Virus record (IMG/VR): IMGVR_UViG_2740892269_000010
Reading direction: 5' to 3' (one strand)
From: a virus
Lineage: Duplodnaviria; Heunggongvirae; Uroviricota; Caudoviricetes
Length of the DNA stretch: 17,104 nucleotides
Position 1 is the stretch's first letter. Every line of letters starts with the position of its first letter. A model generated the notes under the pieces. It worked only from the letters and a program-made list of their open reading frames with translations. It was not told the DNA's origin and made no database searches. A program made the position numbers and the translations under genes. Positions 1,271-17,009 of this stretch are shown here, in pieces.

Positions 1271-1624
1271 CTACCCCAGATGAGTAATCCGAAGTTCATC
1301 CATACCACAGGTCCTGGCTATTCTGTTGTACTCCTGAACAAGAGCAAATAATTCTGAATTAGCAACCATGAACTCATCGCAAACCCTCTGTATAGCATCA
1401 CTATTCAGAATAATAACGTCTCTTCCCGAAAGACGATCAGGAGTACAGAACAAAACTGTCAAACGGCTGAAGGCCTTTGCTCGTGCTGCATTGACTATAT
1501 CAATACGCTGCCTAAGGATGAAACACCCCGACGCCTCATCAATATTCACTCTACCCACACCATATGAATGATAAATATTTAATGCTGAAAAAACCATTAG
1601 ACCGTATAACAAACACTCAATCAA
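1271..1624 (-). CDS. Hypothetical ORF (117 aa, TTG-initiated in the ORF track) at the cargo position downstream of the tRNA
   Basis: Six-frame ORF only. The start codon at 1624-1622 is TTG; no clear RBS and no recognisable motif. Could equally be a gene remnant. Confidence 0.22.
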   Translation of the reverse strand: MIECLLYGLMVFSALNIYHSYGVGRVNIDEASGCFILRQRIDIVNAARAKAFSRLTVLFCTPDRLSGRDVIILNSDAIQRVCDEFMVANSELFALVQEYNRIARTCGMDELRITHLG

Positions 1625-1734
1625 TACTTAACAGAACTTTTATTTTTGACAAACATAAAATATTTTCAACAATATCCTGAGCCAGGTATATTTCAGTATA
1701 AGGCTCTGCCGGAAGGAATCTGGAAGAATGAATA

Positions 1735-1811
1735 TGGCGCGCTGTACTGGATTCGAACCAGTGACCGATTGCTTAGAAGGCAATTGNNNNNNNNNNNNNN
1801 NNNNNNNNNNN
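1735..1811 (-). tRNA. tRNA-Arg (anticodon UCU), 3' half visible, 5' part masked by N
   Basis: Reverse complement of 1735-1786 reads caattgccttctaagcaatcggtcactggttcgaatccagtacagcgcgcca. This gives an anticodon stem attgc/gcaat with loop cTTCTAa (anticodon TCT), a T-stem actgg/ccagt with loop TTCGAAT, a 7-nt acceptor 3' strand, discriminator G and an encoded CCA. The 5' end at about 1811 is extrapolated from a 77-nt length. Confidence 0.6.
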
Positions 1812-2077
1812 NNNNNNNNNNNNNNNNNNNNNNNNNNNNNNNNNNNNNNNNNNNNNNNNNNNNNNNNNNNNNNNNNNNNNNNNNNNNNNNNNNNNNNNNN
1901 NNNNNNNNNNNNNNNNNNNNNNNNNNNNNNNNNNNNNNNNNNNNNNNNNNNNNNNNNNNNNNNNNNNNNNNNNNNNNNNNNNNNNNNNNNNNNNNNNNNN
2001 NNNNNNNNNNNNNNNNNNNNNNNNNNNNNNNNNNNNNTGTAGAAACTCTTCTAACGTCAGGCATAAAACGCCCATAG

Positions 2078-2932
2078 TTATGACGAATTTACCACAGATT
2101 CCGGAAAAATCAACCTAGTTACCTTTTTTAACTGCCGCTCAGCCCATGCTTCTTCAATATCAAACCGAGTCACCAGCGCATCATAGAATTTCTTAACTGT
2201 TTTTTCCCATGACGCGCGTGTTATCTGGTTTGTCACCTCGCATATAGCATTAAATGCCTCCGTTGATGGTAGTCTTTCATAGCCACGACCACCACAACGC
2301 TGGCAGTCTCTGATAACAGGCATACCACGTTTTACCGACTCTTCACGATGAATGGCGACACCACGCCCACGGCAATCCTTACAGGCGGTGGAAACCTCAC
2401 CCTTTCCGCCACACTCCGGACAGGCAACTTTTACCACCTCCCTGACTTTTTTCCATTCTTCCCAGTAAGACGGATACACACCTTTCGTACACTTTGCCCA
2501 TACCGGCGGCTTACCATCCGGATACTGGACCTTGTTTGTAAAAACTACGCTTTCAATAAATTTTTCCCCATAGCAACAAGGGCACTGCTTTTTACTCGCT
2601 GCGCTGCGGGCATAATCCTCAAAAGCGTACGAAGCCATAATGCGCATCACTACCGGTTTTATTTCTGCCGGAAGTTTTCTCAACGCCGCCACACGATCGC
2701 ACCGACTGAGTGCATAATCTGCCAGTAATTCTGTTGCCCGCGCCCTGTCATTCATACTGATGCCCATTTTCCCCAGGAACGCAGAAAACCCCATCTCAGC
2801 CCGATTCTGTGTCATGCCCTGCGCGGCCATCACATCAGTGATACTCAGCGCATCTTTTGACGTTGAGGCCGATGCATCGGTCAGGCAAGGGGATTTTGGG
2901 GAGTAGTATTTCGGTAAATCTTCCAGTTTCAT
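2078..2932 (-). CDS. Putative lambdoid late-gene antiterminator (Q-like), 284 aa, with DnaJ-type CxxCxGxG zinc-finger repeats
   Basis: Position is diagnostic: immediately downstream of rusA with a 4-nt overlap (2929-2932) and immediately upstream of the tRNA island, as in lambdoid late-regulatory regions. The protein contains CPECGGKG, CKDCRGRG and CQRCGGRG repeats plus CPCCYGEK. The family assignment is from context, not a recognised alignment. Confidence 0.55.
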   Translation of the reverse strand: MKLEDLPKYYSPKSPCLTDASASTSKDALSITDVMAAQGMTQNRAEMGFSAFLGKMGISMNDRARATELLADYALSRCDRVAALRKLPAEIKPVVMRIMASYAFEDYARSAASKKQCPCCYGEKFIESVVFTNKVQYPDGKPPVWAKCTKGVYPSYWEEWKKVREVVKVACPECGGKGEVSTACKDCRGRGVAIHREESVKRGMPVIRDCQRCGGRGYERLPSTEAFNAICEVTNQITRASWEKTVKKFYDALVTRFDIEEAWAERQLKKVTRLIFPESVVNSS

Positions 2933-3303
2933 TTTTTGACCTGCTCTTCATGCATTATGGGGTAAATCTTCACCCCCAGACGTCCACCAGATACTGGCTG
3001 ACCACGAACGATATTGATTTCATCAAACTGCTCATCGTCCATTAACACTCCCGCATGTGTCAGTGCATCCAGTGGTGCTTTCAGGATATTGTCCAGGTCA
3101 CGACGGCGCTTATCCGGTGGCTCTGCAATAATCTTTATCGCCAGTCTTCCGGACAGGCTTAATTTCAGTCGCTGCTGACGGACAATAAGCGCCACATCCC
3201 GGCGATAACGCTCACCGGCTTTTGATACAAAATATGTGTTGTCACGACGTCGCCAGTAAGTATTCACCGTCGGCGGATAAGGTAAAATAAACTCATGGCG
3301 CAT
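2929..3303 (-). CDS. rusA: RusA-family Holliday junction resolvase (crossover junction endodeoxyribonuclease), 124 aa
   Basis: The protein carries DKRRRDLDN followed by LDAL and an acidic DDEQ cluster, matching the conserved RusA core (K-12 RusA has DRRRRDLDN as I recall it). Typical nin-region position upstream of Q. Confidence 0.85.
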   Translation of the reverse strand: MRHEFILPYPPTVNTYWRRRDNTYFVSKAGERYRRDVALIVRQQRLKLSLSGRLAIKIIAEPPDKRRRDLDNILKAPLDALTHAGVLMDDEQFDEINIVRGQPVSGGRLGVKIYPIMHEEQVKK

Positions 3304-3545
3304 CAGCGCAGCACCTCCTGCACCAGTTTTTCAAACTTTCCGACTCTGGTTTCCAGCTCTGCCACACAGTCCACCAGCTCATCTACTGCTTTCTGTGCGC
3401 GATGCTTCGCCTGCATCAGTTCCCGAAGCGCGGGTACCATATCTTTACGGATAGCGTCTTTTGTTATGCCCGTTTTTTCGAGTTGTTCAGCATGACGCAG
3501 CATTTCCTGCGCGTGTTTACGCAATTGTTCAGGGGTAAAAGTCAT
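3303..3545 (-). CDS. Hypothetical prophage nin-region protein (about 80 aa from the ATG at 3545; the ORF track extends to a TTG at 3560)
   Basis: ORF 3303..3560 on the minus strand. Its stop overlaps the rusA start by 1 nt (TGATG), suggesting translational coupling. Predicted helical, charged protein; no motif recognised. Confidence 0.5.
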   Translation of the reverse strand: MTFTPEQLRKHAQEMLRHAEQLEKTGITKDAIRKDMVPALRELMQAKHRAQKAVDELVDCVAELETRVGKFEKLVQEVLR

Positions 3546-3771
3546 TGTCTGGTTGTTCAAAAGAAACGCTCCATCTTACTGCTGTCAGTTCGTTTATTAC
3601 TGTATCTGCGCGGATTGCCGGGCTTCATGGGAGTGGAAAGCACCCGTGCACTTTCCTGGTCCACAGGCAGAAAATGTCCGTAGACTGGCCCCCTGAATCT
3701 CCAGACAACCAGTATCACTTAAATAAGTGATAGTCTTAATACTAGTTTTTAGACTAGTCATTGGAGTACAG

Positions 3772-4137
3772 ATGATTGATGTCTTAGGGCCGGAGAAACG
3801 CAGACGGCGTACCACACAGGAAAAGATCGCAATTGTGTCAACGCCACGATGTTTGACCGTTATTTGCCATTTTCATGCCCGCTAAATACTTTCGTTAGCC
3901 AGCCAGTTATTTCTCTGGCGTAAGCAATACCAGGAAGGAAGTCTTACTGCTGTCGCCGCCGGAGAACAGGTTGTTCCTGCCTCTGAACTTGCTGCCGCCA
4001 TGAAGCAGATTAAAGAACTCCAGCGCCTGCTCGGCAAGAAAACGATGGAAAATGAACTCCTCAAAGAAGCCGTTGAATATGGACGGGCAAAAAAGTGGAT
4101 AGCGCACGCGCCCTTATTGCCCGGGGATGGGGAGTAA
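3772..4137 (+). pseudogene. insC: IS2 insC (orfA) disrupted by a premature stop at 3883-3885 inside a 60-bp non-homologous block
   Basis: Same start context as copy 2 insC. From 3837 the sequence diverges for exactly 60 nt and carries an in-frame TAA. Homology and frame resume at 3897. Confidence 0.8.
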
Positions 4138-5000
4138 GCTTAGTCAGCCGTTGTCTCCGGGTGTCGCGTGCGCAGTTGCACGTCATTCTCAGACGAACCG
4201 ATGACTGGATGGATGGCCGCCGCAGTCGTCACACTGATGATACGGATGTGCTTCTCCGTATACACCATGTTATCGGAGAGCTGCCCACGTATGGTTATCG
4301 TCGGGTATGGGCGCTGCTTCGCAGACAGGCAGAACTTGATGGTATGCCTGCGATCAATGCCAAACGTGTTTACCGGATCATGCGCCAGAATGCGCTGTTG
4401 CTTGAGCGAAAACCTGCTGTACCGCCATCGAAACGGGCACATACAGGCAGAGTGGCCGTGAAAGAAAGCAATCAGCGATGGTGCTCTGACGGGTTCGAGT
4501 TCTGCTGTGATAACGGAGAGAGACTGCGTGTCACGTTCGCGCTGGACTGCTGTGATCGTGAGGCACTGCACTGGGCGGTGACTACCGGCGGCTTCAACAG
4601 TGAAACAGTACAGGACGTCATGCTGGGAGCGGTGGAACGCCGCTTCGGCAACGATCTTCCGTCGTCTCCAGTGGAGTGGCTGACGGATAATGGTTCATGC
4701 TACCGGGCTAATGAAACACGCCAGTTCGCCCGGATGTTGGGACTTGAACCGAAGAACACGGCGGTGCGGAGTCCGGAGAGTAACGGAATAGCAGAGAGCT
4801 TCGTGAAAACGATAAAGCGTGACTACATCAGTATCATGCCCAAACCAGACGGGTTAACGGCAGCAAAGAACCTTGCAGAGGCGTTCGAGCATTATAACGA
4901 ATGGCATCCGCATAGTGCGCTGGGTTATCGCTCGCCACGGGAATATCTGCGGCAGCGGGCTTGTAATGGGTTAAGTGATAACAGATGTCTGGAAATATAG
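4095..5000 (+). CDS. insD: IS2 transposase OrfB (InsD) reading frame, 301 aa, intact
   Basis: Identical 301-aa translation to copy 2. Normally expressed as an OrfAB fusion by -1 frameshift at the A6G motif (4089-4095); that cannot yield a normal fusion here because orfA is disrupted. Confidence 0.85.
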
Positions 5001-5011
5001 GGGCAAATCCA
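4971..5011 (+). repeat. IS2 right terminal inverted repeat (IRR) of copy 1
   Basis: 41-nt terminus ending in ...ggggcaaatcca. A perfect inverted match to 5248-5288. Confidence 0.9.
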
Positions 5012-5247
5012 NNNNNNNNNNNNNNNNNNNNNNNNNNNNNNNNNNNNNNNNNNNNNNNNNNNNNNNNNNNNNNNNNNNNNNNNNNNNNNNNNNNNNNNNN
5101 NNNNNNNNNNNNNNNNNNNNNNNNNNNNNNNNNNNNNNNNNNNNNNNNNNNNNNNNNNNNNNNNNNNNNNNNNNNNNNNNNNNNNNNNNNNNNNNNNNNN
5201 NNNNNNNNNNNNNNNNNNNNNNNNNNNNNNNNNNNNNNNNNNNNNNN

Positions 5248-5288
5248 TGGATTTGCCCCTATATTTCCAGACATCTGTTATCACTTAA
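5248..5288 (+). repeat. Right-end-type (IRR-like) terminus at the left end of IS2 copy 2
   Basis: tggatttgcccctatatttccagacatctgttatcacttaa is the exact reverse complement of the right ends at 4971-5011 and 6537-6577. From 5289 it continues as normal IS2 left-end interior (ataagtgatagtc...). Confidence 0.85.
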
Positions 5289-5337
5289 ATAAGTGATAGT
5301 CTTAATACTAGTTTTTAGACTAGTCATTGGAGTACAG

Positions 5338-5703
5338 ATGATTGATGTCTTAGGGCCGGAGAAACGCAGACGGCGTACCACACAGGAAAAGATCGCAATT
5401 GTTCAGCAGAGCTTTGAACCGGGGATGACGGTCTCCCTCGTTGCCCGGCAACATGGTGTAGCAGCCAGCCAGTTATTTCTCTGGCGTAAGCAATACCAGG
5501 AAGGAAGTCTTACTGCTGTCGCCGCCGGAGAACAGGTTGTTCCTGCCTCTGAACTTGCTGCCGCCATGAAGCAGATTAAAGAACTCCAGCGCCTGCTCGG
5601 CAAGAAAACGATGGAAAATGAACTCCTCAAAGAAGCCGTTGAATATGGACGGGCAAAAAAGTGGATAGCGCACGCGCCCTTATTGCCCGGGGATGGGGAG
5701 TAA
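5338..5703 (+). CDS. insC: IS2 OrfA (InsC), 121 aa, DNA-binding transposition protein
   Basis: ATG at 5338 ([26 protein letters not shown]...); the ORF track extends upstream to 5293. Ends at 5703, overlapping insD. Confidence 0.9.
5655..5661 (+). other. A6G slippery heptamer for programmed -1 frameshifting between insC and insD
   Basis: aaaaaag at the insC/insD overlap; the same motif is at 4089-4095 in copy 1. Frameshift-dependent OrfAB expression is established for IS2 and the IS3 family. Confidence 0.7.
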
Positions 5704-6566
5704 GCTTAGTCAGCCGTTGTCTCCGGGTGTCGCGTGCGCAGTTGCACGTCATTCTCAGACGAACCGATGACTGGATGGATGGCCGCCGCAGTCGTCACAC
5801 TGATGATACGGATGTGCTTCTCCGTATACACCATGTTATCGGAGAGCTGCCCACGTATGGTTATCGTCGGGTATGGGCGCTGCTTCGCAGACAGGCAGAA
5901 CTTGATGGTATGCCTGCGATCAATGCCAAACGTGTTTACCGGATCATGCGCCAGAATGCGCTGTTGCTTGAGCGAAAACCTGCTGTACCGCCATCGAAAC
6001 GGGCACATACAGGCAGAGTGGCCGTGAAAGAAAGCAATCAGCGATGGTGCTCTGACGGGTTCGAGTTCTGCTGTGATAACGGAGAGAGACTGCGTGTCAC
6101 GTTCGCGCTGGACTGCTGTGATCGTGAGGCACTGCACTGGGCGGTGACTACCGGCGGCTTCAACAGTGAAACAGTACAGGACGTCATGCTGGGAGCGGTG
6201 GAACGCCGCTTCGGCAACGATCTTCCGTCGTCTCCAGTGGAGTGGCTGACGGATAATGGTTCATGCTACCGGGCTAATGAAACACGCCAGTTCGCCCGGA
6301 TGTTGGGACTTGAACCGAAGAACACGGCGGTGCGGAGTCCGGAGAGTAACGGAATAGCAGAGAGCTTCGTGAAAACGATAAAGCGTGACTACATCAGTAT
6401 CATGCCCAAACCAGACGGGTTAACGGCAGCAAAGAACCTTGCAGAGGCGTTCGAGCATTATAACGAATGGCATCCGCATAGTGCGCTGGGTTATCGCTCG
6501 CCACGGGAATATCTGCGGCAGCGGGCTTGTAATGGGTTAAGTGATAACAGATGTCTGGAAATATAG
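5661..6566 (+). CDS. insD: IS2 transposase OrfB (InsD), 301 aa
   Basis: ORF 5661..6566, identical translation to the copy 1 frame. Frame is -1 relative to insC. Confidence 0.9.
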
Positions 6567-6836: not shown

Positions 6837-7751
6837 ATGGGTAAAACAATCAGTATAAAGGTCCTGTTCGGTATTTATCTTCTATTAATGGCAGGCAAAG
6901 TTTTTGCCTTCAGTTGTAATGTCGATGGCGGGTCAAGTATTGGAGCAGGTACAACCTCTGTTTATGTTAATCTCGACCCTGTAATACAGCCGGGCCAGAA
7001 TCTGGTTGTAGACTTGTCTCAGCATATAAGTTGCTGGAATGATTACGGCGGCTGGTACGACACTGATCATATAAACCTGGTACAAGGCTCAGCTTTCGCA
7101 GGCTCCCTACAGTCATATAAAGGATCGCTGTACTGGAATAATGTGACCTACCCCTTCCCGTTGACGACAAATACCAACGTATTGGATATTGGTGATAAGA
7201 CACCGATGCCATTACCGTTAAAACTCTATATTACCCCAGTTGGGGCGGCCGGTGGAGTTGTCATAAAAGCGGGGGAAGTCATTGCCCGTATTCATATGTA
7301 TAAAATTGCAACATTAGGAAGCGGAAATCCGCGTAATTTTACGTGGAATATTATTTCAAATAACAGTGTTGTTATGCCAACAGGCGGCTGCACCGTTGAT
7401 AGTCGTAATGTCACTGTGGATCTCCCGGACTTTCCTGGAAGCGCAGAAATACCCCTTGGCGTATATTGCTCAAGCGAACAAAAGCTCTCATTTTATCTTT
7501 CGGGTGCCACCACTGACAGTAGCCGACAAGTGTTTGCTAACACAGCACCTGATGCAACAAAAGCATCGGGAGTGGGTGTCACTCTAATGCGTAATGGAAA
7601 AATACTGGCTACGGGAGAAAATGTCTCCCTGGGGACAGTAAATAAAAGCAAAGTACCTCTGGGTTTAAGCGCAACCTATGGACAAACAGGAAACAAGGTT
7701 TCAGCCGGAACCGTCCAGTCAGTCATTGGTGTCACTTTTATCTATGAATAA
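6837..7751 (+). CDS. ydeQ: FimH-family fimbrial tip adhesin homologue, 304 aa
   Basis: Signal-peptide-like N-terminus. Strong collinear similarity to FimH ([51 protein letters not shown]). RBS agga at 6827-6830. Confidence 0.85.
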
Positions 7752-7823
7752 TTGTGATTTTGACCTTAGTCTATGCGCTCCATTCACGAAAATTGCGCAG
7801 ATAATTATTTTGTGAAGGCTATT

Positions 7824-7841
7824 ATCCTACACCTGTAAGAA
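7824..7841 (+). promoter_or_regulatory. Candidate EvgA-box inverted repeat upstream of ydeP
   Basis: ATCCTACA-CC-TGTAAGAA: two half-sites in inverted orientation with a 2-bp spacer, and a near-identical copy upstream of safA (10567-10584). ydeP and safA-ydeO are established EvgA targets. Confidence 0.5.
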
Positions 7842-8084
7842 AATCCGCGCACAATTGAAGCCAGAGTCTTATTTTTTATATTGAAAAATATGTTAATTTA
7901 AACACTATGAGAGATGATGCTTAACTTATCGTATTTAATCTATTGTTTAACGATAATAGATTAAAAATAGAAAGAGAGTAGTCCCCTACTCTTATATATC
8001 CATGTTGGCGATAATCCCTTTGTATGTACTGTGCATCATCGCTATTACAAATCCTAATAATTCATTTCCACACAGGATAAGTAG

Positions 8085-10448
8085 ATGAAGAAAAAAATTG
8101 AATCCTACCAGGGTGCTGCAGGTGGTTGGGGTGCTGTTAAATCCGTAGCGAATGCAGTACGTAAGCAGATGGATATACGCCATGATGTTATTGCCATGTT
8201 TGACATGAATAAGCCAGAGGGCTTTGACTGTCCGGGTTGTGCATGGCCAGATCCTAAGCACAGTGCGTCATTCGACATTTGTGAAAACGGCGCAAAAGCA
8301 ATCGCCTGGGAAGTCACGGATAAGCAGGTAAATGCCTCTTTCTTTGCTGAGAATACGGTTCAATCATTACTTACCTGGGGAGATCACGAGCTTGAGGCTG
8401 CGGGGCGTCTCACTCAGCCTTTGAAATATGATGCCGTCAGCGACTGTTACAAGCCATTAAGCTGGCAACAAGCTTTCGACGAAATTGGCGCACGCCTTCA
8501 AAGCTATAGTGATCCCAATCAGGTTGAATTCTATACTTCGGGCCGCACTTCCAATGAAGCTGCCTTTCTTTATCAGCTTTTTGCCCGTGAATACGGGAGC
8601 AATAACTTTCCCGACTGCTCCAACATGTGCCATGAACCGACAAGCGTGGGTTTGGCAGCGAGTATCGGTGTAGGTAAAGGGACCGTGTTGCTGGAAGACT
8701 TTGAGAAGTGCGATTTAGTCATTTGCATTGGGCATAACCCTGGTACAAACCACCCTCGCATGCTGACTTCGTTGCGCGCTTTAGTGAAACGGGGAGCGAA
8801 AATGATCGCCATCAATCCTCTACAGGAACGTGGCCTGGAGCGATTTACCGCACCGCAAAACCCGTTTGAAATGCTGACGAACTCTGAGACTCAGTTGGCC
8901 AGTGCCTACTACAACGTGCGCATTGGTGGCGATATGGCGTTGCTCAAGGGGATGATGCGCCTGTTAATTGAGCGCGATGATGCTGCAAGTGCCGCAGGTC
9001 GGCCCTCATTGCTTGATGACGAATTTATTCAAACGCATACCGTCGGCTTTGACGAGCTACGCCGTGACGTTCTCAATTCCGAGTGGAAAGATATCGAACG
9101 TATTTCTGGACTAAGTCAGACACAAATCGCCGAACTGGCTGACGCATATGCCGCTGCCGATCGCACCATTATCTGTTACGGAATGGGGATCACTCAGCAC
9201 GAACATGGTACCCAGAATGTACAGCAACTGGTCAATCTGCTGTTGATGAAAGGTAACATTGGCAAGCCTGGTGCGGGTATCTGCCCACTACGAGGTCACT
9301 CTAATGTACAGGGCGACCGAACCGTCGGTATCACCGAGAAACCGTCTGCAGAGTTTCTGGCTCGCCTGGGTGAGCGCTATGGCTTCACCCCACCTCATGC
9401 ACCTGGACATGCTGCAATTGCCAGCATGCAAGCAATATGCACGGGGCAGGCTCGAGCATTGATCTGCATGGGGGGCAACTTTGCACTGGCAATGCCAGAT
9501 CGGGAAGCGAGCGCTGTACCGTTAACGCAATTAGATTTGGCGGTACACGTAGCCACTAAGCTTAACCGCTCTCATCTGCTGACCGCACGGCATAGCTATA
9601 TTCTGCCGGTTCTGGGGCGTAGCGAGATTGACATGCAAAAAAGCGGTGCGCAGGCGGTAACCGTTGAGGATTCAATGTNNNNNNNNNNNNNNNNNNNNNN
9701 NNNNNNNNNNNNNNNNNNNNNNNNNNNNNNNNNNNNNNNNNNNNNNNNNNNNNNNNNNNNNNNNNNNNNNNNNNNNNNNNNNNNNNNNNNNNNNNNNNNN
9801 NNNNNNNNNNNNNNNNNNNNNNNNNNNNNNNNNNNNNNNNNNNNNNNNNNNNNNNNNNNNNNNNNNNNNNNNNNNNNNNNNNNNNNNNNNNNNNNNNNNN
9901 NNNNNNNNNNNNNNNNNNNNNNNNNNNNGTTACCAGAGTTCGCCGACTATAACCAGCGCATCCGACATCCTGGAGGTTTTCACCTGATAAATGCAGCTGC
10001 TGAAAGGCGCTGGATGACGCCGTCAGGTAAGGCTAATTTCATTACCAGCAAAGGGCTGTTAGAAGATCCCTCTTCAGCGTTTAACAGTAAGCTGGTCATG
10101 GCGACAGTACGTAGCCACGATCAGTACAACACGACGATTTATGGTATGGATGATCGCTATCGAGGGGTATTCGGTCAACGAGATGTGGTCTTTATGAGTG
10201 CTAAACAAGCTAAAATTTGCCGTGTAAAAAACGGCGAAAGAGTTAATCTTATTGCGCTTACGCCAGACGGTAAGCGCAGCTCACGCCGCATGGATAGATT
10301 AAAAGTGGTCATTTACCCTATGGCTGACCGCTCACTGGTGACCTATTTTCCAGAATCGAATCACATGCTAACTCTTGATAACCACGATCCATTAAGTGGC
10401 ATTCCTGGTTATAAAAGTATTCCGGTTGAATTAGAACCATCAAATTAA
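8085..10448 (+). CDS. ydeP: YdeP, molybdopterin oxidoreductase family (formate dehydrogenase-like) acid-resistance protein
   Basis: 787-codon ORF; the middle is N-masked (9679-9928) but the frame is preserved. N-terminal Cys cluster CPGCAW...C. AGGA RBS 7 nt before the ATG at 8085; the in-frame ATG at 8169 (MDIRH...) would give the 759-aa form I recall for K-12. Confidence 0.9.
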
Positions 10449-10461
10449 TTCGCCTCCTCAT

Positions 10462-10500
10462 TTCTTCTGCTGTCATCCGCACAGCAGAAGAATTTCTCAT
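10462..10500 (+). terminator. Rho-independent terminator after ydeP
   Basis: Perfect 12-bp stem ttcttctgctgt / acagcagaagaa with loop catccgc, followed by tttctcatt. Confidence 0.6.
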
Positions 10501-10566
10501 TGACTATTATCGCGCAATTTGCTCACATTGATTAAATTAAACCACACACTATAAGATATAAACCTC

Positions 10567-10584
10567 TGCCTACAGCTGTAAGAA
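10567..10584 (+). promoter_or_regulatory. Candidate EvgA-box inverted repeat upstream of safA-ydeO
   Basis: TGCCTACA-GC-TGTAAGAA, 112 nt upstream of the safA ATG. Possible -10 TATATT at 10637-10642. Confidence 0.55.
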
Positions 10585-10695
10585 ACTCCGCTCAGTACTG
10601 AAGTGCCAGTCCTATTTCCTCTTTTCTCCAGCCTGTTATATTAAGCATACTGATTAACGATTTTTAACGTTATCCGCTAAATAAACATATTTGAA

Positions 10696-10893
10696 ATGTA
10701 TGCGACCACAGTGAAAAACAAAATCACGCAAAGAGACAACTATAAAGAAATCATGTCTGTAATTGTGGTTGTCTTATTACTGACCCTTACGTTGATAGCC
10801 ATTTTTTCGGCAATTGATCAGCTGGGTATTTCAGAAATGGGTCGCATTGCAAGAGATCTTACACATTTCATTATCAATAGTTTGCAAGACTGA
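10696..10893 (+). CDS. safA: SafA, small membrane protein linking EvgS/EvgA to PhoQ, 65 aa
   Basis: Translation MYATTVKNKITQRDNYKEIMSVIVVVLLLTLTLIAIFSAIDQLGISEMGRIARDLTHFIINSLQD, with a single central hydrophobic helix. Sits directly upstream of ydeO as in K-12. Confidence 0.85.
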   Translation: MYATTVKNKITQRDNYKEIMSVIVVVLLLTLTLIAIFSAIDQLGISEMGRIARDLTHFIINSLQD

Positions 10894-10967
10894 AAATAAA
10901 CAGCAAATTATAAATATGAAATGTTAAAAAAGTATCGATAAAAACTTTATTGTTTTAAGGAGATAAA

Positions 10968-11735
10968 ATGTCGCTCGTTTGTTCTGTTATATTTATTCAT
11001 CATGCCTTCAACGCTAACATTTTAGATAAAGATTACGCCTTCTCTGACGGCGAGATCCTGATGGTAGATAACGCTGTTCGTACGCATTTTGAACCTTATG
11101 AGCGGCATTTTAAAGAGATCGGATTTACTGAAAATACCATTAAAAAATATCTACAATGCACTAACATNNNNNNNNNNNNNNNNNNNNNNNNNNNNNNNNN
11201 NNNNNNNNNNNNNNNNNNNNNNNNNNNNNNNNNNNNNNNNNNNNNNNNNNNNNNNNNNNNNNNNNNNNNNNNNNNNNNNNNNNNNNNNNNNNNNNNNNNN
11301 NNNNNNNNNNNNNNNNNNNNNNNNNNNNNNNNNNNNNNNNNNNNNNNNNNNNNNNNNNNNNNNNNNNNNNNNNNNNNNNNNNNNNNNNNNNNNNNNNNNN
11401 NNNNNNNNNNNNNNNNNNNNCCATGGAAGCTGAAAGATATTTGTGACTGCCTGTACATCAGTGAAAGCCTGTTGAAGAAAAAACTAAAGCAAGAGCAAAC
11501 GACATTCTCACAGATTCTATTAGATGCCAGAATGCAGCACGCAAAAAATTTGATACGCGTAGAAGGTTCAGTCAATAAAATTGCCGAACAATGTGGTTAT
11601 GCCAGTACATCTTATTTTATTTATGCGTTCCGCAAACATTTCGGCAACAGTCCGAAGAGAGTTTCTAAGGAGTACCGTTGTCAAAGTCACATGGGTATGA
11701 ATACGGGCAACACGATGAGTGCTTTAGCTATTTGA
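10968..11735 (+). CDS. ydeO: YdeO, AraC-family acid-resistance transcriptional activator
   Basis: RBS aaggag at 10957-10962. N-terminus MSLVCSVIFIHHAFNANILDKDYAF and a C-terminal AraC HTH (KIAEQCGYASTSYFIYAFRKHFGNSPKRV). The middle is N-masked (11168-11420). Confidence 0.9.
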   Translation: MSLVCSVIFIHHAFNANILDKDYAFSDGEILMVDNAVRTHFEPYERHFKEIGFTENTIKKYLQCTNXXXXXXXXXXXXXXXXXXXXXXXXXXXXXXXXXXXXXXXXXXXXXXXXXXXXXXXXXXXXXXXXXXXXXXXXXXXXXXXXXXXXXPWKLKDICDCLYISESLLKKKLKQEQTTFSQILLDARMQHAKNLIRVEGSVNKIAEQCGYASTSYFIYAFRKHFGNSPKRVSKEYRCQSHMGMNTGNTMSALAI

Positions 11736-11783
11736 TTATTTGCTAACGAGTAGTCAACCACGCACGCTGCGTAAGAATTAAAT

Positions 11784-11815
11784 GGGGCAGCCATTCCCTG
11801 CCCCGCGTTGTTTTT
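11784..11815 (+). terminator. Rho-independent terminator after ydeO
   Basis: Stem ggggcag / ctgcccc with loop ccattcc, followed by gcgttgttttt. Confidence 0.55.
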
Positions 11816-12135
11816 AGGCGATATATTTATTGAAATAAATAAGTGACATCCATCACATATTTATGCACTTGCATAACCTGTTGCAGATTATTTATGATCT
11901 CAATTCGGCATTTTGTCAGTAAAATGCAATAATTTATTAAATATCAATAAATTAGTTGTTTATCGGCGAGAAATTACTTAATAGAACAGAAAGTAATGTC
12001 AACGCTTTATGGACTGTTATTTCCCTTTTTTTAGCTAAATCTGCTATCTCTTTATGTGACTAACTTCACTTACATCCACTTATTTCTCTTCGTAAAATTA
12101 CTTCGGAATTAAGTACAATAAGAAGAGGAACATTT

Positions 12136-13818
12136 ATGAAGTCTGCATTAAAGAAAAGTGTCGTAAGTACCTCGATATCTTTGATACTGGCATCTGGTAT
12201 GGCTGCATTTGCTGCTCATGCGGCAGATGATGTAAAGCTGAAAGCAACCAAAACAAACGTTGCTTTCTCAGATTTTACGCCGACTGAATACAGTACCAAA
12301 GGAAAGCCAAATATTATCGTACTAACCATGGATGATCTTGGTTATGGACAACTTCCTTTTGATAAGGGATCTTTTGACCCAAAAACAATGGAAAATCGTG
12401 AAGTTGTCGATACCTACAAAATAGGGATAGATAAAGCCATTGAAGCTGCACAAAAATCAACGCCGACGCTCCTTTCATTAATGGATGAAGGCGTACGTTT
12501 TACTAACGGCTATGTGGCACACGGTGTTTCCGGCCCCTCCCGTGCCGCAATAATGACCGGTCGAGCTCCCGCCCGCTTTGGTGTCTATTCCAATACCGAT
12601 GCTCAGGATGGTATTCCGCTAACAGAAACTTTCTTGCCTGAATTATTCCAGAATCATGGTTATTACACTGCAGCAGTAGGTAAATGGCACTTGTCAAAAA
12701 TCAGTAATGTGCCGGTACCGGAAGATAAACAAACGCGTGACTATCATGACAACTTCACCACATTTTCTGCGGAAGAATGGCAACCTCAAAACCGTGGCTT
12801 TGATTACTTTATGGGATTCCACGCTGCAGGAACGGCATATTACAACTCCCCTTCACTGTTCAAAAATCGTGAACGTGTCCCCGCAAAAGGTTATATCAGC
12901 GATCAGTTAACCGATGAGGCAATTGGCGTTGTTGATCGTGCCAAAACACTTGACCAGCCTTTTATGCTTTACCTGGCTTATAATGCTCCGCACCTACCAA
13001 ATGATAATCCTGCACCGGATCAATATCAGAAGCAATTTAATACCGGTAGTCAAACAGCAGATAACTACTACGCTTCCGTTTATTCTGTTGATCAGGGTGT
13101 AAAACGCATTCTCGAACAACTGAAGAAAAACGGACAGTATGACAATACAATTATTCTCTTTACCTCCGATAATGGTGCGGTTATCGATGGTCCTCTGCCG
13201 CTGAACGGGGCGCAAAAAGGCTATAAGAGTCAGACCTATCCTGGCGGTACTCACACCCCAATGTTTATGTGGTGGAAAGGAAAACTTCAACCCGGTAATT
13301 ATGACAAGCTGATTTCCGCAATGGATTTCTACCCAACAGCTCTTGATGCAGCCGATATCAGCATTCCAAAAGACCTTAAGCTGGATGGTGTTTCCTTGCT
13401 GCCCTGGTTGCAAGATAAGAAACAAGGCGCGCCACATAAAAATCTGACCTGGATAACCTCTTATTCTCACTGGTTTGATGAGGAAAATATTCCATTCTGG
13501 GATAATTACCACAAATTTGTTCGCCATCAGTCAGACGATTACCCGCATAACCCCAACACTGAGGACTTAAGCCAATTCTCTTATACGGTGAGAAATAACG
13601 ATTATTCGCTTGTCTATACAGTAGAAAACAATCAGTTAGGTCTCTACAAACTGACGGATCTACAGCAAAAAGATAACCTTGCCGCCGCCAATCCGCAGGT
13701 CGTTAAAGAGATGCAAGGCGTGGTAAGAGAGTTTATCGACAGCAGCCAGCCACCGCTTAGCGAGGTAAATCAGGAGAAGTTTAACAATATCAAGAAAGCA
13801 CTAAGCGAAGCGAAATAA
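12136..13818 (+). CDS. ydeN: YdeN, predicted periplasmic Ser-type sulfatase, 560 aa
   Basis: RBS aggaa. Sec-type signal peptide ending AHAADD. Sulfatase signature S-G-P-S-R at 12529-12543 with Ser at the formylglycine position. Confidence 0.85.
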   Translation: MKSALKKSVVSTSISLILASGMAAFAAHAADDVKLKATKTNVAFSDFTPTEYSTKGKPNIIVLTMDDLGYGQLPFDKGSFDPKTMENREVVDTYKIGIDKAIEAAQKSTPTLLSLMDEGVRFTNGYVAHGVSGPSRAAIMTGRAPARFGVYSNTDAQDGIPLTETFLPELFQNHGYYTAAVGKWHLSKISNVPVPEDKQTRDYHDNFTTFSAEEWQPQNRGFDYFMGFHAAGTAYYNSPSLFKNRERVPAKGYISDQLTDEAIGVVDRAKTLDQPFMLYLAYNAPHLPNDNPAPDQYQKQFNTGSQTADNYYASVYSVDQGVKRILEQLKKNGQYDNTIILFTSDNGAVIDGPLPLNGAQKGYKSQTYPGGTHTPMFMWWKGKLQPGNYDKLISAMDFYPTALDAADISIPKDLKLDGVSLLPWLQDKKQGAPHKNLTWITSYSHWFDEENIPFWDNYHKFVRHQSDDYPHNPNTEDLSQFSYTVRNNDYSLVYTVENNQLGLYKLTDLQQKDNLAAANPQVVKEMQGVVREFIDSSQPPLSEVNQEKFNNIKKALSEAK

Positions 13819-13830
13819 CTAAACCTTCAT

Positions 13831-13850
13831 GCGGCGGATTTTTCCGCCGC
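13831..13850 (+). other. Intercistronic hairpin between ydeN and ydeM (possible weak terminator or attenuator)
   Basis: Perfect 7-bp stem gcggcgg / ccgccgc with loop attttt, followed by a poor T-tract (cttattg). Confidence 0.35.
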
Positions 13851-13869
13851 CTTATTGAGCGAGATAGCG

Positions 13870-15027
13870 ATGCACGTTACAGCCAAGCCCTCCAGTTTTC
13901 AATGTAATCTCAAATGTGATTACTGTTTTTACCTTGAAAAAGAGTCGCAGTTTACTCATGAAAAATGGATGGATGACAGCACTCTGAAAGAGTTCATCAA
14001 ACAATATATCGAAGCGTCTGGCAATCAGGTCTATTTTACCTGGCAAGGCGGTGAACCCACTCTGGCTGGCCTGGATTTTTTCCGTAAAGTTATTCACTAT
14101 CAACAACGCTATGCAGGCCAAAAACGTATTTTTAATGCATTACAAACGAATGGCATTTTATTGAATAATGAATGGTGTGCCTTTCTCAAAGAACATGAAT
14201 TTCTGGTTGGTATCTCGATCGATGGCCCCCTGGAGTTACATGACCGTTACAGACGCAGTAATTCAGGTAACGGTACTTTTGCAAAAGTGATAGCAGCCAT
14301 CGAGCGTCTGAAATCATATCAAGTAGAGTTTAATACGTTAACCGTCATTAATAACGTTAATGTCCATTACCCTCTTGAGGTTTATCATTTTTTAAAATCT
14401 ATCGGCAGTAAACATATGCAATTTATCGAATTGCTAGAAACCGGGACGCCGAATATTGATTTCAGTGGTCATAGTGAGAACACATTCCGTATCATTGATT
14501 TTTCTGTGCCTCCCACGGCTTATGGCAAGTTTATGTCAACCATTTTTATGCAATGGGTTAAAAACGATGTGGGTGAAATTTTCATTCGTCAGTTTGAAAG
14601 CTTTGTCAGCCGTTTTTTGGGGAATGGGCATACAAGTTGTATTTTCCAGGAGTCCTGCAAGGATAATCTGGTTGTTGAAAGTAATGGAGACATTTACGAA
14701 TGCGACCATTTTGTCTATCCACAGTACAAAATTGGAAACATTAATAAATCTGAACTCAAAACGATGAACAGTGTACAACTGACAGCGCAAAAAAAACGGA
14801 TTTCAGCGAAATGTCAGCAATGTGCATATAAACCTATCTGCAATGGCGGTTGTCCTAAGCATCGTATTACTAAAGTAAACAATGAGACTGTTTCTTATTT
14901 TTGCGAAGGTTATAAAATCCTTTTTTCAACCATGGTACCTTATATGAACGCCATGGTTGAGTTAGCTAAGAACAGAGTACCGCTTTACCACATTATGGAT
15001 GTTGCAAAACAAATGGAGAATAATTAA
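13870..15027 (+). CDS. ydeM: YdeM, radical-SAM anaerobic sulfatase-maturating enzyme homologue, 385 aa from the ATG at 13870
   Basis: CxxxCxxC radical-SAM motif CNLKCDYC (13903-13926) and C-terminal Cys clusters (CDHF..., [17 protein letters not shown]). The ORF track extends to a TTG at 13855 inside the hairpin; the ATG at 13870 is preferred. Confidence 0.85.
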
Positions 15028-15080
15028 TAACGCTCTCTTTTAACTCCATTCTTAGCCTCCTTCTTATGACCTTAACAAGG

Positions 15081-15110
15081 CACCCGACATAAATTCCTGT
15101 CGGGTGTTTC
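15081..15110 (+). terminator. Candidate terminator after ydeM
   Basis: 9-bp stem cacccgaca / tgtcgggtg with loop taaattcc, followed by only a short T run (tttc). Confidence 0.4.
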
Positions 15111-15323
15111 GTCATCATCATCTTCCCTTGCGAAAATCCTGGCTTACGTGGTATGCGTCAGGGCATTAGCAATACCCTTGATTATCAATAGCATAACCAT
15201 AACCATAACCACTGAAAATTAAAAATTTCTATATATTTCATATTGTTAAATGATACTTAAATAAATTTCATCAGTAAATCATTGCCATAGATAATCATTG
15301 GATGGCACAATCAATTTTCGCTA

Positions 15324-17009
15324 ATGATAACCATTCCCATTACGTTTTATATGTTGATAGCAAAGTATCTCTGTCTGCTGAAGCCCTTTTGGCTGCGTAA
15401 GAATAATAAAACTTCAGTGTTGTTAATCATTATTATCCTCGCAATGATCCTTGGCGTGGTTAAAATTCAGGTCTGGTTAAACGACTGGAATAATGATTTT
15501 TTCAATGCGCTAAGCCAGAAAGAAACCGATAAGCTTTGGCAGCTTGTTCTTTGGTTCCCTGCCCTGCTGGGGATCTTTGTATTAATATCCGTAAACAAAA
15601 CATGGTTAATTAAACTACTGACTATTCGCTGGCGCGAATGGTTAACAGATTACTACCTTAATCGCTGGTTTGCAGATAAAAACTACTACTTCACGCAGAT
15701 CTACGGCGAGCATAAAAATACAGATAACCCTGACCAACGTATCGCTGAAGACATTCTCTTACTGATCAGCAAAACGCTCAGTCTTTCATTTGGCTTCATC
15801 CAGTCACTTAGCATGCTGATCACCTTTACCGTTATTCTTTGGCAAAGCGCGGGTACGCTCTCATTCACTGTTGGTGGAACAGAATGGAATATCCAGGGGT
15901 ATATGGTCTATACCGTCGTGCTCATTGTGATCGGTGGAACTTTATTTACCCATAAGGTGGGTAAACGTATTCGTCCGCTTAATGTGGAAAAACAACGTAG
16001 CGAAGCGACATTTCGAACTAATCTTGTGCAGCATAATAAGCAGACAGAACTGATTGCGCTAAGCAATGCTGAGTCTCTACAACGCCAGGAGTTGCGCGAC
16101 AATTTTCATACCATTAAAGAGAACTGGCATCGTTTAATGAATCGTCAGCGGTGGCTTGATTACTGGCAAAATATTTATTCGCGCTCGCTTAGCGTTCTTC
16201 CCTACTTTCTGTTATTGCCGCAGTTTATTAGCGGGCAGATCAATCTGGGCGGACTGATGAAATCGCGCCAGGCATTTATGCTAGTATCGAACAATTTAAG
16301 CTGGTTTATTTATAAATATGACGAACTTGCTGAACTGGCTGCGGTTATCGATCGCTTGTATGAGTTCCATCAACTCACTGAACAGCGCCCTACGAATAAG
16401 CCTAAAAATTGCCAACATGCGGTACAAGTGGCTAATGCGAGTATTCGTACGCCTGATAATAAGATCATATTAGAGAACTTGAACTTTCATGTTTCGCCAG
16501 GCAAATGGCTATTACTGAAAGGCTACTCTGGTGCGGGAAAAACCACACTGCTTAAAACATTATCCCACTGCTGGCCGTGGTTTAAAGGTGATATTTCTTC
16601 TCCTGCTGACAGTTGGTATGTGTCACAAACACCGTTAATCAAAAGCGGCTTACTGAAAGAGATTATTTGTAAAGCACTTCCCCTGCCCGTAGACGATAAA
16701 TCGTTGAGCGAAGTACTGCATCAGGTTGGTCTGGGGAAATTGGCTGCGCGTATTCATGACCACGATCGCTGGGGAGATATTCTTTCCAGCGGCGAAAAAC
16801 AACGTATCGCCCTGGCACGATTAATTTTACGACGTCCGAAATGGATATTTCTTGACGAAACTACCTCTCATCTTGAGGAACAAGAGGCTATACGCTTACT
16901 GCGTTTAGTGCGTGAAAAACTACCCACAAGCGGCGTCATTATGGTTACACATCAACCCGGTGTCTGGAACCTGGCTGATGATATTTGTGACATTAGCACG
17001 GTTTTATAA
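15324..17009 (+). CDS. yddA: YddA, fused permease/ATPase ABC transporter, 561 aa
   Basis: N-terminal hydrophobic segments. Walker A GYSGAGKTTLLK, ABC signature LSSGEKQRIALARL and Walker B WIFLDETTSHL. Length and position match K-12 yddA. Confidence 0.85.
   Translation: MITIPITFYMLIAKYLCLLKPFWLRKNNKTSVLLIIIILAMILGVVKIQVWLNDWNNDFFNALSQKETDKLWQLVLWFPALLGIFVLISVNKTWLIKLLTIRWREWLTDYYLNRWFADKNYYFTQIYGEHKNTDNPDQRIAEDILLLISKTLSLSFGFIQSLSMLITFTVILWQSAGTLSFTVGGTEWNIQGYMVYTVVLIVIGGTLFTHKVGKRIRPLNVEKQRSEATFRTNLVQHNKQTELIALSNAESLQRQELRDNFHTIKENWHRLMNRQRWLDYWQNIYSRSLSVLPYFLLLPQFISGQINLGGLMKSRQAFMLVSNNLSWFIYKYDELAELAAVIDRLYEFHQLTEQRPTNKPKNCQHAVQVANASIRTPDNKIILENLNFHVSPGKWLLLKGYSGAGKTTLLKTLSHCWPWFKGDISSPADSWYVSQTPLIKSGLLKEIICKALPLPVDDKSLSEVLHQVGLGKLAARIHDHDRWGDILSSGEKQRIALARLILRRPKWIFLDETTSHLEEQEAIRLLRLVREKLPTSGVIMVTHQPGVWNLADDICDISTVL

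Follow-up and report, generated by a model that had tools for sequence, protein, structure and literature searches.

A lambda-family Q antiterminator gene of the phi80-like long-arm form next to a predicted late promoter in a decayed Shigella/E. coli prophage

The closest structurally described relative of the protein considered here is the Q protein of phage lambda (207 aa; PDB entries 4mo1 and 7ubj-7ubn), whose family, Q-lambda, is represented by Pfam PF03589 (Yin et al. 2022, PMC9388147). Residues 61-113 and 153-207 of lambda Q make up an HTH body of four helices, and residues 114-152 an arm classified as a 'type I shuffled zinc ribbon', which is formed by a pair of CxxCxGxG motifs (PMC9388147). 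Together with NusA, residues 1-44 are rearranged to form a nozzle within the RNA-exit channel; residues 110-112, 117 and 122-126 touch the beta' zinc-binding domain, and the ribbon blocks swivelling; the C-terminus likewise refolds, making contact with the flap-tip helix and the torus, and its residues 202 and 206 are important for function (PMC9388147). The two motifs of lambda Q are CRDCHGTG at residue 118 and CGRCKGVG at residue 144. A further relative is the Q protein of phage phi80 (gp17, 269 aa), which was reportedly studied experimentally by Guo and Roberts in 2004. The phi80 sequence record also annotates a pR' promoter with its -35 element, Q-binding site and -10 element.

The window analyzed in this study is a stretch of phage DNA of 17,104 nucleotides. 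Its minus strand encodes, at positions 2078-2932, a protein of 284 aa (TAA stop at 2078-2080), referred to as the window Q, which includes a read-through tail of 11 residues. The reading frame is located between rusA (PF05866; 2929-3303, minus strand), the upstream neighbor, with an overlap of 4 nt at the Q start codon, and a masked tRNA island. An earlier note on this DNA had described a reading frame at this place carrying the motifs CPCCYGEK, CPECGGKG, CKDCRGRG and CQRCGGRG. Location and motifs were confirmed, with the corrections that the gene lies on the minus strand and that its last 11 codons do not belong to the normal 273-aa protein.

Profile searches with the 284-aa protein yielded a match to Pfam PF03589 (Antitermination protein Q) with 183.6 bits at a cutoff of 26.7 (E=7e-55) and to the PHROG family phrog_127 ('anti-termination protein Q-like') at 1e-110. 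In a phmmer search against PDB sequences, lambda Q (7ubm_Q) was the best match (E=1.8e-40). Residues 1-113 of the window Q align to residues 1-113 of lambda Q (84 bits) and residues 182-273 to lambda residues 116-207, with about 40% identity over the shared segments. Identity reaches 52% within the N-terminal residues 1-44 (2801-2932, minus strand), which are homologous to the torus (nozzle) segment that lambda Q places in the RNA-exit channel. Besides this segment, both proteins have in common the HTH body and a Cys4 ribbon that contains two CxxCxGxG motifs; at its normal length of 273 aa, the window Q also shares with lambda Q a C-terminus ending in VTR. Furthermore, an AlphaFold2 model calculated from 55 homologues (mean pLDDT 87.5) was compared to PDB structures by means of Foldseek, and the best fold match was the NusA-engaged form of Q-lambda, 7ubn_Q (E=2e-14, TM 0.80 normalised to the target). 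The analysis shows that the window Q is a full-length lambda Q homologue within the Q-lambda family; its fold, the conservation of its motifs and the layout of the promoter (see below) were likewise shown.

These results bear out the previous assignment of the protein in the Q position to the late antiterminators. They do not agree with the additional suggestion that it may constitute an antiterminator family of its own or be some other regulator merely residing in the Q slot. Such a reading could draw on the length of the window Q, which exceeds that of lambda Q by 66-77 aa, on its four Cys motifs as compared to two, and on a sub-threshold match to DnaJ_CXXCXGXG (29.2 bits). However, homology to lambda Q is collinear along the whole length, the PF03589 score is far above threshold, the fold matches that of 7ubn_Q, and the extra length consists of one insertion that is common to phi80 Q. 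The idea of a distinct family was refuted on these grounds and is considered highly improbable; the protein is a very common lambda-family Q in the phi80-like long-arm form. The profile search against antiterminator Q families and the structure prediction, both proposed beforehand, thus led to PF03589 and phrog_127 and to 7ubn_Q, respectively, and the confident match is to the lambda Q family rather than to one unrelated to late promoters. Moreover, the exact 284-aa sequence is already annotated as "antitermination protein [Shigella]" and occurs on at least 1000 contigs. The value of the locus as a discovery is low: thousands of genomes of E. coli and Shigella carry the gene under the annotation of an antitermination protein, and structures and mechanism of the family are known.

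The Cys pairs of the window Q start at residues 117 (CPCCYGEK; pair a), 171 (CPECGGKG; pair b), 184 (CKDCRGRG; pair c) and 210 (CQRCGGRG; pair d). Among 55 aligned homologues, C117, C120, C171, C174, C184 and C187 are kept in at least 90% of the sequences and C210 and C213 are invariant, and because of this conservation the motifs are not a product of chance. The presence of zinc motifs of the CxxCxGxG type, as stated in the earlier note, was therefore verified for four conserved pairs. C184, C187, C210 and C213 align with C118, C121, C144 and C147 of lambda Q, pairs c and d thereby corresponding to the crystallographic zinc site of that protein. Judging from this alignment, a Cys4 zinc-ribbon arm of the lambda type (residues 182-218; 2279-2389, minus strand) is present in the window Q and is predicted to bind zinc. 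The CxxCxGxG signature is a normal feature of lambda Q, since lambda Q itself carries CRDCHGTG and CGRCKGVG; the picture of lambda Q in the earlier note, with which such repeats did not agree, was incomplete.

What sets the window Q apart from lambda Q is a single insertion of 68 residues (114-181; 2390-2593, minus strand), located exactly at the junction between body and arm, between positions 113 and 116 of lambda Q. It contributes two more Cys pairs, a (C117/C120) and b (C171/C174), and a long beta hairpin. The order of elements in the AlphaFold2 model is strand 114-116, pair a, hairpin 125-136/159-170, pair b and then the lambda-type ribbon, in which pair c, helix 196-202 and pair d follow each other; the hairpin tip is of lower confidence. 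Pairs a and b are placed at the two ends, i.e., the base, of one antiparallel hairpin. Since a and b occupy this position and c and d represent the lambda zinc site, the model points to two sequential ribbons rather than to the nested arrangement of DnaJ. Based on this topology and on the co-occurrence of both pairs, a and b would form a second zinc ribbon, whereas lambda Q, without the insertion, possesses one. Insertion and lambda-type ribbon show weak internal similarity (E=0.001), and PF03589 matches the window Q in two stretches. Both observations suggest that the second Cys4 ribbon most likely arose by tandem duplication of the first.

The repeats had also been interpreted as the signature of the DnaJ cysteine-rich domain (PF00684), with which the window Q indeed shares CxxCxGxG repeats of the zinc-binding type. 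A DnaJ-like zinc-finger chaperone or redox protein carried by the prophage would fit the scores obtained for TIGR02349 (DnaJ_bact; 28 bits) and, over residues 163-218, for PF00684 (29.2 bits). It would also fit the label 'chaperone protein DnaJ' that a submitter gave to one homologue (P0033) and the Foldseek match to DnaJA2 (7zhs), which is weak (E about 0.4). However, these scores remain below the curated cutoffs of 377 bits for TIGR02349 and 32.7 bits for PF00684, and neither a J domain nor a DnaJ C-terminal domain was found in the window Q by Pfam and NCBIfam searches. Moreover, the modeled strand order, in which a and b share the base of a single hairpin, would suggest sequential pairing, whereas zinc topology in DnaJ is nested (motifs 1+4 and 2+3), and the motifs of the window Q belong to a DNA- and RNAP-binding arm, unlike those of DnaJ. 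The probability of a DnaJ-like protein is regarded as negligible.

In order to describe the spread of the lambda-family Q with the long arm, 1.84 billion cluster representatives were searched exhaustively with HMMER, resulting in 235 clusters at E-values up to 0.001. The best 150 of these 235 clusters included 36 whose representative (at the 50%-identity level) was full-length, and motifs were counted in these 36 sequences. Four C-x(1,2)-C-x-G motifs were detected in 26 of them, 3 further ones also featured four Cys pairs but had a motif that was variant or spurious, and the two-pair lambda form was found in 6. About 80% of the full-length clusters examined contain the insertion. Pair b was always accompanied by pair a in this set, and the distance between the two ranged from 14 to 63 residues; the length of the hairpin is therefore variable. 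The long form is represented in mEp460, the Stx2a-converting phage, mEp237, phiEt88, ES18, SfV, Fels-1 and phi80, and the short form in lambda, P22 (gp23), HK97, HK022 and HK620.

Phi80 Q, which is 41% identical to the window Q overall, has all four Cys pairs and an insertion homologous to that of the window Q. The two systems differ in pair c (CxC in phi80 Q, CxxC in the window Q), in the promoter hexamers and in the C-terminal body, where identity drops to 24%. No other segment is as well conserved between both proteins as the insertion, with 54% identity as compared to 24-47% elsewhere, and this speaks for functional constraint. A more far-reaching hypothesis, which is regarded as rather unlikely when taken as a whole, holds that the tandem-ribbon arm is the majority form of Q-lambda and possibly ancestral, that lambda Q is a reduced derivative, and that the additional ribbon and hairpin might provide a contact to RNAP, NusA or upstream DNA altering loading or anti-pausing. 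A mildly new point is that the structurally characterized lambda Q represents the minority single-ribbon form, and that the common double-ribbon arm is without an experimental structure.

Directly past the normal Q stop, a candidate pR'-like late promoter was recognized in a pattern-anchored comparison across phages, including lambda and phi80. On the minus strand, it is composed of the -35 element TTGATT (2108-2113), the putative Q-binding element TTCCGGA (2100-2106), the -10 element TAAATT (2086-2091), preceded by TGG in the manner of an extended -10, and the -10-like sigma-dependent pause element AACTAT (2074-2079), which starts 6 nt past the -10 element and is followed by GGG. The corresponding elements of lambda pR' are TTGACT, a 17-nt spacer, TAAATT, TGACTC, AACGAT and GGG. 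The -10 element is thus identical to that of lambda and the AAC(G/T)AT-GGG pause element has the same spacing, whereas the spacer sequence containing the Q-binding element differs. In phi80, the annotated elements are arranged as in the window, and the annotated gp17(Q) site TCGCGGA, located at the same offset from the -35 element, is the counterpart of TTCCGGA. E. coli 042, mEp460 and the window have in common TTGATT, TTTCCGGAATCTGTGG, TAAATT, CGTCAT, AAC(G/T)AT and GGG.

The same layout recurs after Q in mEp460, the Stx2a phage, mEp237, Klebsiella phage Kpn_R1, Erwinia phage phiEt88 and SfV, followed by an intrinsic terminator in each case, and the spacer keeps TTTCC(C/G)GAA in those relatives whose Q shares 50% identity or more. 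The pause element is AACGAT in lambda, E. coli 042, the Stx2a phage, mEp237, Kpn_R1 and SfV; AACTAT of the window is one base off and retains A2 and T6 of the -10-like element. A generic promoter scan did not report the pR'-like site, which scored 8/12 at a threshold of 9. A late promoter had been expected at 2038-2077; the site recognized is at 2074-2113 instead, where it overlaps the 3' end of the extended Q reading frame. As far as can be read from motifs, the Q gene is situated directly upstream of a late promoter with a putative Q-binding element and a pause element, and the terminator is deduced from homologues only.

The terminator would be located in the masked block (1787-2037, minus strand), whose counterpart in E. 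coli 042 encodes an intrinsic terminator (AACCCGCCGCCGAGCGGGTTTTTT), tRNA-Ile and the 5' part of tRNA-Arg. Unmasked letters restart at 1733-1787 (minus strand) and match the 3' half of the E. coli 042 tRNA-Arg with the anticodon loop CTTCTAA. Since this restart lies within a tRNA, the mask cuts the gene and hides it from ARAGORN, which predicted no tRNA in the window owing to the masking of the island. Just downstream of the tRNA island, a reading frame of 117 aa with a TTG start was observed (1271-1624, minus strand). It has neither an NCBIfam match nor an annotated counterpart in the E. coli 042 record and may be spurious or an unannotated late-region moron.

Overall, the window Q is very probably a late antiterminator of the Q-lambda family, in the long-arm form as in phi80, and would act like lambda Q. 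By homology with lambda Q, its HTH body and zinc-ribbon arm would bind the putative spacer element TTCCGGA while sigma-70 holds RNA polymerase at the pause AACTAT. The N-terminal 44 residues would then fold, together with NusA, into the nozzle of the RNA-exit channel, and RNA polymerase would pass the terminator downstream and continue into the tRNA genes and the late genes. Since lambda residues 113 and 116 flank the entry point of the insertion, its ribbon and hairpin should emerge beside the contact with the beta' zinc-binding domain; speculatively, they may extend this contact or touch DNA or NusA. Zinc binding by the two extra pairs, the pairing of a with b, the role of the insertion and the activity of the 284-aa allele are what we infer.

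The closest orthologues of the window Q are 273-aa proteins of mEp460 (98.9% identical) and of the Stx2a-converting phage Stx2_EH1910 (91% identical; gene named quuQ). In both phages, the order of rusA, Q, promoter, pause element and terminator is the same as in the window, and for mEp460 also the -35 element, the -10 element and the spacer motif are identical. Both retain the normal Q stop and feature AACGAT or AATGAT, whereas the window has AACTAT and an 8-bp deletion. In the Stx2_EH1910 region inspected (L003, 3501-7579), the gene for the 91% identical Q precedes stx2AB by about 2 kb, and three tRNAs separate the two. Since Q, promoter, pause element and terminator precede stx2AB, this Q type drives Shiga toxin expression in some phages. 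Near-identical Q genes thus control stx2 in some Stx2a phages, which makes the properties of this Q type relevant to how the toxin is expressed.

In comparison to E. coli 042 and mEp460, the window has lost 8 bp (AGGTAACA, within the direct repeat GGTAAC-N-AGGTAAC; 2081-2118, minus strand), and the deletion removed the TAG stop codon. Because the stop is missing, translation of Q runs on for 11 codons through -35 element, spacer and -10 element. The usual length of Q is 273 aa, and the tail LIFPESVVNSS (2081-2113, minus strand), representing translated late promoter DNA, is foreign to the normal protein. In the AlphaFold2 model, its 11 residues have pLDDT values below 50 and are predicted to be disordered. 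The gap-free allele is shared by only 4 of 2385 matching E. coli records.

The state of this allele raises the question whether the family assignment is right and the 284-aa protein nevertheless is an inactive relic that no longer antiterminates in its host. We rate this as a serious possibility, somewhat short of an even chance. The lost stop codon is consistent with it, as residues 202 and 206 near the C-terminus of lambda Q are functionally important (PMC9388147), and so are the pause element altered by one base and the early region cut by two IS2 copies at about 3.6-6.6 kb. Few of the matching E. coli records have the gap-free allele, and the occurrence of the exact protein, the Shigella form, on at least 1000 contigs is consistent with fixation in a clonal lineage. 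On the other hand, the reading frame is otherwise intact at 98-99% identity to mEp460 Q, the -35 element, -10 element and spacer motif are those of mEp460, AACTAT keeps the A2 and T6 positions, and a flexible tail of 11 residues may well be tolerated. The Q gene itself belongs to the ordinary late-gene antiterminators for which annotation already exists, and within this decayed prophage of Shigella/E. coli it adjoins its own predicted late promoter.

Only a remnant of the prophage is left: upstream of rusA, IS2 copies cut its early region at a distance of about 300 bp from this gene. Position 3306, where homology to the best E. coli matches ends, marks a mosaic junction. An 85-aa coiled-coil-like reading frame upstream of rusA (3303-3560, minus strand) could be assigned to no family with confidence. 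Between about 3600 and 6600, two IS2 copies are present in tandem orientation. The copy at 5293-6566 encodes intact TnpA and TnpB (NF006928, NF006918). In the copy at about 3727-5000, an identical TnpB of 301 aa is encoded and TnpA is broken into pieces of 52 and 45 aa. A masked block at about 5010-5270 separates the two.

Past the IS2 copies, large ordinary-looking reading frames of 304, 787, 255, 560, 390 and 561 aa follow on the plus strand (6837-17009). A scan of the first, the 304-aa frame, gave a weak, sub-threshold match to a fimbrial protein. The six frames presumably resemble the ydeQ-ydeP-ydeO-ydeN-ydeM-yddA region of E. coli. If this likeness holds true, the prophage remnant abuts chromosomal genes through IS2.
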